Origin: Escherichia coli
GTDB taxonomy: Bacteria; Pseudomonadota; Gammaproteobacteria; Enterobacterales; Enterobacteriaceae
NCBI RefSeq assembly: GCF_003334305.1
Contig: NZ_QOWS01000005.1
DNA length: 64,000 nt
Direction: 5' to 3' (one strand)
Shown here: positions 26,922 through 58,731 of the stretch, piece after piece
Layout: every line of letters starts with the position of its first letter
Numbering within the stretch: position 1 is the first letter of the stretch
Notes under the pieces: model-generated
What the model saw: only the letters and a program-made list of their open reading frames with translations
Databases searched by the model: none
What the model was told of the DNA's origin: nothing
Translations under genes and position numbers: made by a program

Positions 26922-27968
26922 TCAGAAGCGGGTATCTACCGCAGAGGCAAGTTTTTCGACCAGGCGTTCGGTATCTTCCCAGCCCAGACACGGGTCGGTA
27001 ATGGATTGACCGTAAGTGAGCGGCTGACCGCCGACGATTTTTTGCGTTCCTTCGCGCAGGAAACTTTCCGCCATAATTCCAGCAATCGCCGTAGAGCCAT
27101 TGCGGATTTGCTGACAAATATCCTCACAAACTTCTAACTGGCGACGGTGCTGCTTCTGGCAGTTACCGTGGCTGAAATCCACCACCAGATGTTCAGGTAA
27201 ATCAAACTCGTGCAGCGTATCGCAGGCTGCGGCGATATCATCGGCATGATAATTCGGTTTTTTGCCGCCACGCATAATAATGTGGCCATACGGGTTGCCG
27301 CTGGTCTGATAGATGGTCATCTGACCATTTTTGTCTGGCGAGAGAAACATATGGCTGGCGCGGGCTGCGCGGATAGCATCCACGGCAATCCGCGTGTTGC
27401 CATCGGTACCATTTTTAAAACCTACCGGACAGGAGAGTGCCGAAGCCATTTCACGGTGGATCTGACTTTCGGTAGTACGTGCGCCAATCGCGCCCCAACT
27501 GATTAAATCAGCAATAAACTGACCGGTCACCATATCGAGGAACTCAGTCGCGGTAGGGACACCCAGCTCATTTACCTGTAAAAGTAATTTGCGCGCCAGC
27601 TCCAGACCGTGATTTACCCGATAGCTGCCGTTTAAATCCGGATCGGAGATTAGCCCTTTCCAGCCGACAACAGTTCGTGGTTTTTCAAAATAGGTGCGCA
27701 TTACGATTTCCAGCCGTGACTGGTACTGGTTGCGCAGCGACTGCAGACGGGTGGCGTACTCCATTGCAGCGGTGAGATCGTGGATCGAGCAGGGGCCAAT
27801 AATGACCAACAGTCGCTTATCTTCACCATTCAGTATTTTTTCAATTCTGCGGCGGGAGTCGGTGACATGGGTGGCGACGCCAGGCGTTACGGGATACCGT
27901 AGCGCGAGTTCGGCGGGCGTTACCAGGCTCTCAATACGCGCAGTACGGAGTTCGTCAGTTCTGTTCAT
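26922..27968 (-). CDS. aroH: DAHP synthase, Trp-sensitive isozyme
   Basis: 348-aa ORF MNRTDELRTARIESLVTPAELALRYPVTP... recognised as AroH. Confidence 0.96.
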   Translation of the reverse strand: MNRTDELRTARIESLVTPAELALRYPVTPGVATHVTDSRRRIEKILNGEDKRLLVIIGPCSIHDLTAAMEYATRLQSLRNQYQSRLEIVMRTYFEKPRTVVGWKGLISDPDLNGSYRVNHGLELARKLLLQVNELGVPTATEFLDMVTGQFIADLISWGAIGARTTESQIHREMASALSCPVGFKNGTDGNTRIAVDAIRAARASHMFLSPDKNGQMTIYQTSGNPYGHIIMRGGKKPNYHADDIAAACDTLHEFDLPEHLVVDFSHGNCQKQHRRQLEVCEDICQQIRNGSTAIAGIMAESFLREGTQKIVGGQPLTYGQSITDPCLGWEDTERLVEKLASAVDTRF

Positions 27969-28056
27969 TACAAGTCTCAGAAATTTGTTGCTTCTACGGC
28001 AGGACTACCGGGAAGTGATGCGCATCACGATAAACCAATCGCAACTGATTTCAAGT

Positions 28057-28077
28057 GCGAGGTGTGTCACACCTCGC
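28057..28077. repeat. Perfect 21-bp palindrome in the aroH upstream/leader region
   Basis: gcgaggtgtg-t-cacacctcgc, 10-bp arms around a single central base. Confidence 0.9.
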
Positions 28078-28113
28078 CGGGTGGTTAGCATGATAACAAA
28101 AAAATAAGCTAAT

Positions 28114-28131
28114 GCACTAGTTCTCTAGTAC
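28114..28131. promoter_or_regulatory. TrpR operator of aroH
   Basis: gcactagttctctagtac (minus strand GTACTAGAGAACTAGTGC) fits the Trp repressor operator consensus built on CTAG half-sites; overlaps the ppsR stop codon. Confidence 0.75.
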
Positions 28132-28958
28132 ATTCGGCGGCTAAGCCCCATGATATCGAGGATCTTGGTGGCAATCTCTTCTACCGAATAATTGGTACTG
28201 TTAATCCACGGGATCTGATTTTTACGGTACAACGCTTCTACTTCCGCGACTTCCATCCTGCACTGACGAAGCGAGGCATAGCGGCTGTTCTCCCGACGTT
28301 CCTCGCGAATCGCCGCCAGACGTTCCGGGTCGATAGTCAGGCCGAACAATTTATGCTGAAGCGGTTTGAGCGACGCGGGTAGCACCAGATTGTCCATATC
28401 GTCGGCAATAAAGGGGTAGTTTGCCGCGCGGATACCAAACTGCATTGCCAGATACAGACTGGTGGGGGTTTTACCACAGCGAGAAACACCGAGCAGGATC
28501 ACCTGAGCCTGGTCCAGATTGCGCAACGAAATGCCGTCATCGTGGGCGAGGGTGTAATCAATCGCCGCAATGCGCGCATCATATTTATTGAGATTATTAG
28601 GGTTAAGGCCATGGGTACGATGAGCAATCGGCGTTGGATCCAGTTTCATCTCTTGTTGTAGCGGGGCAACCAGCGCCTGAACAATATCCTGGCAAAAGCC
28701 TTCACTTTGCAAGATGATGGCGCGAATCTCCGGCAACACGATGGAGTAGAAGACCAGCGGGCGCACACCTGTCTGGTGATAAATTGCGTCAATCTGATCC
28801 TTCACTGCCCGTGCACGGCTCTCATTTTCGACAAACGGCAGCGTAATGCTGCTGATAGTGACGGGAAATTGTGACATTACTGCGTGTCCTAATACCTCCG
28901 CAGTTATTGCCGTACCATCAGAAATATAAAAAACGTGGCGATCAACAGCATTATCCAT
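28125..28958 (-). CDS. ppsR: PEP synthetase regulatory protein (bifunctional kinase/pyrophosphorylase)
   Basis: 277-aa [30 protein letters not shown]... recognised as YdiA/PpsR; P-loop GVSRCGKT. Confidence 0.94.
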
Positions 28959-39220: not shown

Positions 39221-40816
39221 TTAATGAGCCGCTTCAGGCAGGACAAAACCCATCGCCGCATCGATAAATAATCTTTCGTTCATCAGTTTGAGTTCTGGCG
39301 AAATCACTGGGGTGAAGTCCATTTTGTCGAGAATATCTTTTTGTAAATCGACGCCAGGGGCGATTTCGATTAAATGCAGGCCGTCTTCTTTCAGCGTGAA
39401 TACAGCACGTTCGGTGATGTAACGAACATCCAGTCCCCGTTCGAGCGCGATTTTTCCGCTAAAAGTAATTTCCGGTAGTTCCCGAATAAATTTATTTACC
39501 CGTCCTTCCTGGACGATATGCAATTTGCCATCGGCAATTTCTGTTTTTAAACTGCCCGCAGTTAACGTGCCGCAGAAAATAATTTTCTTCGAGGTGGCAC
39601 TGATATCAATAAATCCACCGGTACCCATGATTTTGCCATTGAATTTATGCACGCCGACGTTACCGTGCTGGTCGACTTCAGCAAAACTCAAATAACAAAC
39701 ATCCAGACCACCACCGTGATAAAAATCAAACTGGGACGTCATATCCAGAATGGCGCGGGTATTCACGTTCGCGCCAAAGGCGATACCCTGTGAAGTAATT
39801 CCGCCAATCGGACCTGTTTCTACCGTCAGAATAAAGTCATCAGCACAACCTTCTTCCCGGGCGACCAGGCCAATACCGTCAGCAATACCGACGCCGACAT
39901 TCCCCACCGCGCCTTTACGCATTTCGAATAATGCACGCCGCGCAACTAATTTACGTTGGTTTAGGGGCAGGCTAAGTTTGGTGCTGTCATCAAGGGTGAA
40001 GTCACCAGAAATAAAACGGTTAACCGGCGCACCGCCATACAGTTGGCTTTGATCCGGATCGACCACCACAATATCCACCAGATAACCCGGAATACGGACA
40101 GATTTAGGATGCAGCGTGGCTTTCTTAACCATTTTCTGCACCTGCATCATCACAATACCGCCGTTATTGTGCACCGCCTGGGCAATAACCAATGCGTCGA
40201 GATACATCACCTCATCTTCAAAAGTGGCGTAGCCTTCACTGTCGCAGGTGGTAGCGCGAATGAAGGCGATATCTGGCGCAATCGCTTTGTAATAGAGATA
40301 TTCTTTGTTATCAAACTCGACCAGTTTAATCAGGTCTTCTTTCGTGACTTCATTCAGTTTGCCGCCTTGCTGGCGTGGATCGACAAATGTCCCGATGCCA
40401 ATATCACTAATAATACCAGGCTGGTGGGCTGCGGCGGCGCGTAAGGTTTGTGTAAGTACACCTTGTGGATAGTTATAAGCAATAATTTTATTTTGTTCTG
40501 CGAGTTCAGAAATACGCGGCGATTGTCCCCAGTGACCACATAATGCCCATTTCACCAGACCTTCTTGCGCCAGAGGACTAATACCACGGTCGGCGCGATC
40601 GCCAAGCCCTGTCGGACTAATAATCGATAAATTACGTGGCGTTTGAGTCTGTTTATATTTATCAGCAAGAGCTGTAATTAACGTGGTGGCTTCCAGAATA
40701 CCGCCGCCAGCGCCTAACACACAAAGTGTTGCTTCGTCGGGAATATAATTCACCGCTTCCTGTGCCGACAGGACCGGCACTCGTCCATTAATACGAGGTG
40801 GTTTTACAGGTTTCAT
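39221..40816 (-). CDS. ydiF: Fused acyl-CoA:acetate CoA-transferase (alpha/beta subunits)
   Basis: 531-aa ORF recognised as YdiF. Confidence 0.9.
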   Translation of the reverse strand: MKPVKPPRINGRVPVLSAQEAVNYIPDEATLCVLGAGGGILEATTLITALADKYKQTQTPRNLSIISPTGLGDRADRGISPLAQEGLVKWALCGHWGQSPRISELAEQNKIIAYNYPQGVLTQTLRAAAAHQPGIISDIGIGTFVDPRQQGGKLNEVTKEDLIKLVEFDNKEYLYYKAIAPDIAFIRATTCDSEGYATFEDEVMYLDALVIAQAVHNNGGIVMMQVQKMVKKATLHPKSVRIPGYLVDIVVVDPDQSQLYGGAPVNRFISGDFTLDDSTKLSLPLNQRKLVARRALFEMRKGAVGNVGVGIADGIGLVAREEGCADDFILTVETGPIGGITSQGIAFGANVNTRAILDMTSQFDFYHGGGLDVCYLSFAEVDQHGNVGVHKFNGKIMGTGGFIDISATSKKIIFCGTLTAGSLKTEIADGKLHIVQEGRVNKFIRELPEITFSGKIALERGLDVRYITERAVFTLKEDGLHLIEIAPGVDLQKDILDKMDFTPVISPELKLMNERLFIDAAMGFVLPEAAH

Positions 40817-45927: not shown

Positions 45928-46032
45928 AAAAAAAGCCCATCGTGGGAGATGGGCAAAGACTACACACAGCAATTCGTTGTTTCACTCAGGGGATTTCCAT
46001 GCTTATAAATCAATATGTTGATTTATAACCGT
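45928..46032 (-). ncRNA. rprA: RprA small regulatory RNA (Hfq-dependent activator of rpoS translation, RcsB-controlled)
   Basis: Minus-strand read ACGGTTATAAATCAACATATTGATTTATAAGCATGGAAATCCCCTGAGTGAAACAACGAATTGCTGTGTGTAGTCTTTGCCCATCTCCCACGATGGGCTTTTTTT matches the recalled 105-nt RprA sequence exactly, including the 3' terminator hairpin and U-run; located between ydiL and ydiK as in K-12. Confidence 0.9.
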
Positions 46033-46217
46033 AAGCTAATAGTAGGCATACGGACTTTTTGCGTCGATCAGATTCGTCTCATTAGTTTAAAAACTGTAAA
46101 GAATTTGCGACAGGTACTACCAGCTGAATGGCGGTAAGCAGGAAAATATGGGGAAGAGCAAGCAAATATCAATTAGCGGGGGTTAACAATCAGGCGGCAG
46201 AGCCGCCTGATGAGAAA

Positions 46218-50775: not shown

Positions 50776-51182
50776 TATGGAAACGAAAAATCACCCTGGA
50801 AGCACTGAATGCTATGGGTGAAGGAAACATGGTGGGGTTGCTGGATATTCGCTTTGAACATATTGGTGATGACACCCTTGAAGCGACAATGCCAGTAGAC
50901 TCGCGGACAAAGCAGCCTTTCGGGTTGCTGCATGGAGGCGCATCCGTGGTGCTGGCCGAAAGTATCGGTTCCGTTGCCGGTTATTTATGTACTGAAGGTG
51001 AGCAAAAAGTGGTTGGCCTGGAAATCAATGCTAACCACGTCCGCTCGGCACGAGAAGGGCGGGTGCGCGGCGTATGCAAACCGTTGCATCTCGGTTCGCG
51101 TCACCAGGTCTGGCAGATTGAAATCTTCGATGAGAAAGGGCGTTTGTGCTGTTCGTCACGATTGACGACCGCCATTTTGTGA
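50772..51182 (+). CDS. menI: 1,4-dihydroxy-2-naphthoyl-CoA hydrolase (hotdog thioesterase)
   Basis: 136-aa ORF recognised as YdiI/MenI; ATGA overlap with the ydiJ stop. Confidence 0.9.
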   Translation: MIWKRKITLEALNAMGEGNMVGLLDIRFEHIGDDTLEATMPVDSRTKQPFGLLHGGASVVLAESIGSVAGYLCTEGEQKVVGLEINANHVRSAREGRVRGVCKPLHLGSRHQVWQIEIFDEKGRLCCSSRLTTAIL

Positions 51183-58698: not shown

Positions 58699-58731
58699 AA
58701 AAAAAATGGCGCACAATGTGCGCCATTTTTC
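58699..58731. terminator. Bidirectional rho-independent terminator between ldtE and lpp
   Basis: aaaaaaaatggcgcaca-atg-tgcgccattttt: GC-rich stem flanked by an A-run and a T-run, able to terminate both convergent transcripts. Confidence 0.85.

Follow-up and report, generated by a model that had tools for sequence, protein, structure and literature searches.

The 21-bp palindrome that separates ppsR from aroH in Escherichia coli is best explained, with a probability that we put at about one half, as a conserved stem-loop carried in the leader of the upstream aroH promoter and in the tail of ppsR transcripts, together with a CRP site in the Escherichia/Salmonella lineage. The best-supported statement is that selection appears to act on the base pairing of the palindrome, as judged from the alignment of related loci. 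Which transcript the stem would serve, whether it alters RNA stability and in which direction CRP would act are what we infer. That a TrpR operator lies here and overlaps the ppsR stop codon is classical knowledge, and the operator, the two aroH promoters and a CRP peak are already published; no description was found, in the literature searched, of the covarying stem or of how deeply the start-overlapping CRP box is conserved.

The DNA analysed, termed here the window, is a stretch of 64,000 nucleotides in which ppsR is followed by aroH, according to the RefSeq annotation of identical E. coli DNA. Both genes lie on the minus strand. The open reading frame list and the RefSeq annotation place ppsR at 28958..28125 and aroH at 27968..26922, with the aroH ATG start codon at 27966..27968. 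The final ppsR codons, ATG-TAC-TAG, span 28133-28125, with ATG TAC at 28133-28128 and the stop TAG, also read directly from the sequence, at 28125..28127, within the TrpR operator. A 351-bp query taken at the finding has matches in 5423 of 5426 complete E. coli genomes.

The TrpR operator, GCACTAGTTCTCTAGTAC (GTACTAGAGAACTAGTGC on the aroH strand), occupies 28114..28131 on the minus strand as an 18-bp dyad with paired CTAG cores. It departs from the TrpR consensus GTACTAGTTAACTAGTAC by 3 mismatches, and at this tolerance (<=3 mismatches) the consensus is matched once in the 64-kb window and not at all in 100 shuffles. The initial annotation, which had set the operator over the ppsR stop codon, was exact on this point: the sole consensus match has the TAG inside it. 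Its statement that the aroH promoter is embedded in the 3' end of ppsR holds for the operator overlap, but the -35 and -10 hexamers of the upstream promoter lie just past the stop codon. The gene aroH is a textbook TrpR target whose control by TrpR is established, and the binding of TrpR at aroH reportedly goes back to the work of Kumamoto in 1987 and of Grove & Gunsalus in 1987. Among the TrpR operators of trpEDCBA, aroH and trpR, the dyad at 28114-28131 is the aroH operator itself, with no difference in kind. It differs from the other TrpR operators in that its left half-site, GTACTA, is contributed by the end codons of ppsR (ATG TAC TAG/TAA), an arrangement kept across the Enterobacteriaceae, where the locus comparison finds the operator beside or over the ppsR stop. 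According to the same comparison, the operator and the upstream promoter are mainly confined to the Enterobacteriaceae. In Erwinia, a genus without the operator, ppsR still ends in ...ATGTACTGA (loci L035 and L080). Since operator-less genera keep that ending, the comparison suggests that the operator grew from pre-existing ppsR coding sequence. A terminator scan called the operator dyad and the following TTATTTTTTT (28101-28134, minus strand) terminator-like for ppsR. The T-run after the operator is also the spacer of the upstream promoter, and is kept in Escherichia, Salmonella and Citrobacter and not in Enterobacter.

The initial annotation had assumed a single aroH promoter, and two exist, aroHp1 and aroHp2 (hereafter p1 and p2). 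Two promoters of aroH are published (Hudson et al. 1991), and the guides designed for the curated aroHp1 and aroHp2 in a CRISPRa preprint (Table S3) put the two starts at ~28085 and 28019. The TrpR operator overlaps the -35 region of p1 and ends 18 nt upstream of its -10 hexamer, TATCAT (28090..28095, minus strand), whose A2 and T6, like its spacing from the operator, are kept from genus to genus. The guide positions yield the p1 start at ~28085 (A) indirectly, to within about 1-3 nt. The downstream promoter is sigma-70-like in the promoter scan (TTGAAA-16 nt-TATCGT), lies downstream of the palindrome and is the only promoter that the scan of the region returned; its -35 hexamer TTGAAA (28049..28054, minus strand) and its -10 hexamer TATCGT (28027..28032, minus strand) are both identified by the scan and by conservation. 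Its start is the A at 28019 (minus strand), which leaves a 51-nt 5' UTR. With 414 reads from MG1655 in M9 glucose, Kim et al. (2012) placed an aroH start at NC_000913.2:1786408; this is the sole aroH start mapped in that medium, and the upstream sequence that they give ends in ...TATCGTGATGCGCA, placing the start at window position 28019. The same 51-nt 5' UTR was used in a study of GcvB.

The p2 block, TTGAAW-16 nt-TATYGTGAT-N4-ATCACTTCCCGG, is kept from Escherichia as far as Yersinia, Serratia, Edwardsiella and Providencia. The rest of the p2 5' UTR (27969..28018, minus strand) is also strongly conserved in sequence, with the motifs AUCACUUCCCGGYA..UGCCG..GAAG..UUCUGAGA recognizable out to Yersinia, Serratia and Edwardsiella, and a covariation analysis of this UTR returned just a 4-bp stem with little support. 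In E. coli JNE151685 (locus L081, at about 240-385) an insertion of ~110 bp separates the aroHp2 -10 region from the -35 box.

The palindrome itself, GCGAGGTGTG-A-CACACCTCGC, was identified by an inverted-repeat check as a perfect 10+1+10 arrangement at 28057..28077 on the minus strand. Its arms (28057-28066 and 28068-28077) complement each other fully (100%) across a single central nt, and the next bases are ACTTGAAATCAG, in agreement with the initial annotation, which had described a perfect palindrome with no U-run behind it. It starts at a distance of 48 nt from the ppsR stop, and 2 bp separate its end from the p2 -35 box, so that p2 transcripts are without it. Relative to p2 it spans -38..-58; if the curated p1 start (~28085) is right, it lies within the p1 RNA, at +9..+29. 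The proposal that it forms an RNA hairpin in the aroH leader thus stands for the hairpin, which covariation supports, would hold for the p1 leader, and falls for the p2 leader. The initial annotation had also named an observation that would count against its own proposal, namely a palindrome that is not conserved and lies upstream of the mapped start with no effect on expression; it is indeed upstream of the dominant mapped start, yet it is conserved as a structure.

As RNA, the palindrome folds into a hairpin of -15.6 kcal/mol (z = -4.4 against shuffles of a 34-nt segment), and in the ensemble of the p1 leader its lower nine pairs form with probabilities of 0.81-1.0. Perfect inverted repeats with arms >=10 bp and loops <=8 nt number 0.63 on average per shuffled window, compared with nine loci in the real window. 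The eight others lie at 245-268, 6321-6348, 17019-17043, 21163-21187, 24149-24175, 46003-46028, 46189-46211 and 58703-58729, and several of them have the flanking A/T runs typical of bidirectional terminators. Within E. coli, a 31-nt stretch around the palindrome occurs at one locus, with 100% identity in 5369 of the 5423 genomes, and the palindrome is unchanged in 8 diverse strains. Polymorphisms are so few among E. coli strains, however (~16 variable sites per 190 nt, by a manual count from the alignment), that zero changes in 21 nt are not significant.

Comparison between genera was based on 80 orthologous loci, 7 more found through protein look-ups and 57 metagenomic loci. Across these loci the sequence from the p1 -10 to the p2 -35 varies. 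Immediately before the p2 -35 box, E. coli, Salmonella, the genus represented by loci L099, L122 and L142, Enterobacter, Lelliottia and Leclercia have a strong hairpin. Its conserved stem is the lower 8 bp of the palindrome, and Escherichia, Salmonella, Enterobacter, Lelliottia and Leclercia all have this 8-bp stem at the identical position, with loops that vary in length and sequence. No strong hairpin was found at this place in E. albertii (degraded), Citrobacter youngae (deleted) or C. freundii (replaced), nor in Klebsiella oxytoca, Kosakonia, Pseudocitrobacter, Pluralibacter, Cedecea and more distant genera. The stem is thus dispensable, since it is absent or degraded in genera that still carry p1 and the TrpR operator. 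In C. youngae (L039) a deletion of ~40 nt takes away the palindrome together with the p2 -35 box, and C. freundii (L088) has an unrelated segment of ~80 nt there, with a long inverted repeat of its own; the CRP box described below and the 5' UTR are kept in both.

The Salmonella palindrome matches that of E. coli at 20 of 21 positions, the single change giving a U.G pair, and the 12 nt that lead from the p1 -10 to the palindrome match at 5/12 by manual count. Three types of stem were recognized, an E. coli type (GCGAGGTG / CACCTCGC), an Enterobacter type (TCGGGGCG / CGCCCCGA) and a Leclercia type (GCAGGGCG / CGCCCTGC), which align pair for pair when registered from the 3' end, at a fixed distance from the p2 -35. 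Between the first two types there are double changes at three pairs (G-C/U-A, A-U/G-C and U-A/C-G), and the Leclercia type differs at further pairs. In an alignment of 46 distinct sequences, registered by hand and with the loop length of each sequence chosen for maximal pairing, 91% of the cells hold standard pairs, as against 31-46% after a shift of the 3' partner by 1-3 columns, and 6 of the 8 pairs are changed on both sides, as against 0-3. Cells changed on both sides number 38, compared with 11.8 +/- 2.5 after shuffling (0/500 shuffles reach 38), a signal that amounts to approximately three lineages and a few within-lineage events. The rows with the hairpin contain 12 G.U cells as against 3 A.C cells, which mildly favours RNA of the aroH sense as the molecule in which the pairing takes place.

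The conserved stem-loop would thus be transcribed near the 5' end of the aroHp1 mRNA and in any read-through from ppsR. Its GC-rich stem could form a stable barrier to 5'-end-dependent decay in the p1 leader, which is long and untranslated, and might also block the 3' exonucleases that trim ppsR transcripts. By analogy, it may be likened to 5'-proximal stabilising stem-loops such as that of ompA, and to structures that obstruct scanning by RNase E, in being a GC-rich stem with a variable loop, conserved as a structure and close to where an untranslated leader begins. Classical stabilisers, ompA among them, allow about 0-4 unpaired nt at the 5' end. The stem of the p1 RNA differs from these in being preceded by ~8 unpaired nt, which counts against a stabiliser role, and in belonging to just one of the two aroH transcripts. 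An effect of the stem on the accessibility of the Shine-Dalgarno sequence was discarded, as the p1, p2 and stem-disrupted p1 leaders showed no clear difference.

The second component of the proposed explanation is the CRP site. Haycocks et al. (2015, Table 1) list aroH among 111 high-confidence CRP ChIP-seq targets in ETEC H10407, with two MEME-predicted sites for the peak, AGTGATGCGCATCACG (first listed) and TGCGAGGTGTGTCACA. The centre of the peak (1887513) is about 170-210 bp from both sites; the peak covers the two and does not separate the distal site from the stronger proximal one. The proximal site, CGTGATGCGCATCACT, is at 28014..28029 on the minus strand; it is centred at -2.5 of p2 and spans -10..+6, covering the edge of the -10 and the start. 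The distal CRP-like site, TGCGAGGTGTGTCACA, is at 28056..28071 on the plus strand; on the aroH strand it reads TGTGA-CACACC-TCGCA, in the apical part and 3' arm of the palindrome, and its centre, 28063.5, falls at -44.5 relative to p2 and at about +22 relative to p1. A PWM built from the 97 other sites of Haycocks Table 1 and scored at 63,985 positions of the window ranks the proximal site first (14.6) and the distal site third (12.8), where the median of true sites is 13.1; 3 of the 63,985 positions reach 12.8. Other high matches in the window are 39715-39730 (13.5), 51145-51160 (12.6) and 23264-23279 (12.3). The two sites are 42 bp apart from centre to centre, or ~four helical turns. The suggestion that the palindrome may be a protein-binding site has in this way acquired a plausible candidate in CRP, whose motif lies near a published ChIP-seq peak.

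The two sites differ in their distribution. The proximal site scores 13-17 in 39 of the 43 Enterobacterales with a p2 anchor, an anchor that includes its left half. The distal site is restricted to the family of E. coli/Salmonella-type sequences, in which TGTGA and TCGCA are kept and the N6 spacer varies (CACACC, CACGCC, CGCACC, TCCACC); both half-sites are also retained at L099, L122 and L142, although the aroH of these loci is only ~82% identical to any reference. Near-consensus CRP boxes stand in the place of the palindrome, at -50.5, in Pluralibacter, Escherichia sp. ESNIH1 and Enterobacter sp. ENT03. The position of the proximal box, at -2.5 of p2, fits a repressing position and predicts repression of p2 by CRP. 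In the proposed explanation, CRP-cAMP would occlude p2 when carbon is poor, through the proximal site with the distal one assisting, and could possibly impede p1 as well. A promoter repressed by a CRP site over its start is known from cyaA. The aroH region resembles such start-covering or tandem CRP operators in having two motif matches at the level of true sites and a published in vivo occupancy; it differs from the standard ones in that its distal site, at -44.5, is not at a standard position (-41.5, -61.5 or the core promoter), and in being absent from the regulatory network checked, that of a 2021 study, in which TrpR is the sole listed regulator of aroH.

A stronger version of the same idea, which we regard as doubtful, is that the 21 bp are doubly coded, being at once a p1-specific covarying stem-loop and the more distant of the two sites in a CRP switch around aroHp2. 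If this were true, carbon status would select, through cAMP-CRP, the aroH promoter by which PEP is fed into the aromatic pathway, a carbon-dependent aroH switch would adjoin the gene that regulates PEP synthase, and CRP control of aroH, through the proximal site, would be ancestral to the Enterobacterales.

It is unlikely that the palindrome is purely a DNA operator, that is, the distal site of a two-site CRP arrangement round aroHp2, with a perfect dyad that arose incidentally, for example when template switching perfected a quasi-palindrome. The exact 16-mer is listed under the ETEC peak, its PWM score is about the true-site median and third in 64 kb, its half-sites are invariant in three genera with variation in the spacer only, and strong CRP boxes occupy the same place in other genera, all of which favour such an operator. 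The centre of the dyad (28067), however, is 3.5 bp off that of the CRP site (28063.5), so that the symmetry of CRP cannot explain the palindrome. Moreover, the Enterobacter-type and Leclercia-type stems contain no CRP motif, the covarying stem being present without it in Enterobacter, Lelliottia and Leclercia, and another Escherichia lineage (L123) retains the stem and lacks TGTGA.

Quite unlikely is a hairpin that serves the 3' end of ppsR, either as a weak or factor-assisted terminator or as a 3'-protecting stem, and that shields aroHp2 from transcription arriving from upstream. In its favour are the GC content of the stem, the variability of its loop and its place 48 nt past a stop codon; several other perfect palindromes of the window are terminator-like, and more distant Enterobacterales have, by eye, a hairpin and T-run between ppsR and p2. 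Yet no lineage has a U-tract behind the stem, the types of Enterobacter and Leclercia included; the bases there are (A)ACUUGAAAU. No matching 3' end appears among the entries listed from the Term-seq data of Adams et al. (2021), which contain neither an aroH 3' end nor a sense-strand ppsR 3' end. An efficient terminator would also abort p1 transcripts, and TrpR control is established; the stem is not an efficient terminator, because p1 must read through it to express aroH. The same Term-seq data include a strong antisense 3' end within ppsR (K-12 coordinate 1787648, minus strand).

The stem does share with Rho-independent terminators a strong GC-rich stem-loop past a stop codon (10-bp arms, -15.6 kcal/mol). 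It differs from them in the missing U-tract and in the read-through required of p1, and an intrinsic terminator at the palindrome was rejected, as the next bases are ACUUGAAAUCAG and the terminator scan makes no call. The canonical terminator is the least likely reading, one that nothing supports, and the initial annotation's alternative of a terminator fragment is accordingly the least supported of its three, its overall reading being partly supported.

That the palindrome is a functionless, neutral feature of one lineage is very unlikely, for its loss in E. albertii and Citrobacter while aroH and p1 persist, and the non-significance of its invariance within E. coli, are set against compensatory changes across genera and near-identity in E. 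coli, Salmonella and the L099/L122/L142 genus while adjacent bases diverge.

Several other identities were considered and set aside. The palindrome resembles REP/BIME elements in being GC-rich and intergenic, but a repeat family was rejected, as it has a median of one place per genome (5423 genomes) and no REP consensus. A leader peptide or attenuator was also rejected: short leader frames, read from the sequences, are not conserved and none has Trp codons; the frame ATG CGC ATC ACT TCC CGG TAG stops in E. coli and continues in Yersinia. Published reporter data show that aroH is not regulated by GcvB, and a target of this sRNA was discarded. No convincing antisense promoter was found in the ppsR-aroH spacer, and a class II CRP-dependent antisense promoter was rejected by eye, there being no acceptable -10 hexamer 41.5 bp from either CRP site. 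A permissive scan of 27700-28400 against Rfam 15 gave no match up to E = 10, and the entries listed from the SMRT-Cappable-seq supplements include neither aroH nor ppsR.

The present work is a modest refinement of a well-studied locus and introduces no new kind of mechanism. The palindrome belongs to the upstream aroH promoter and not to the main mapped leader, and the two CRP motifs of the region sit under a published, uncharacterised ChIP-seq peak, the one that covers the start being conserved from Escherichia to Yersinia. If confirmed, this arrangement would tie carbon status to the entry of the aromatic amino-acid pathway, and would bear on the metabolic engineering of strains for shikimate and tryptophan in which aroH is manipulated.
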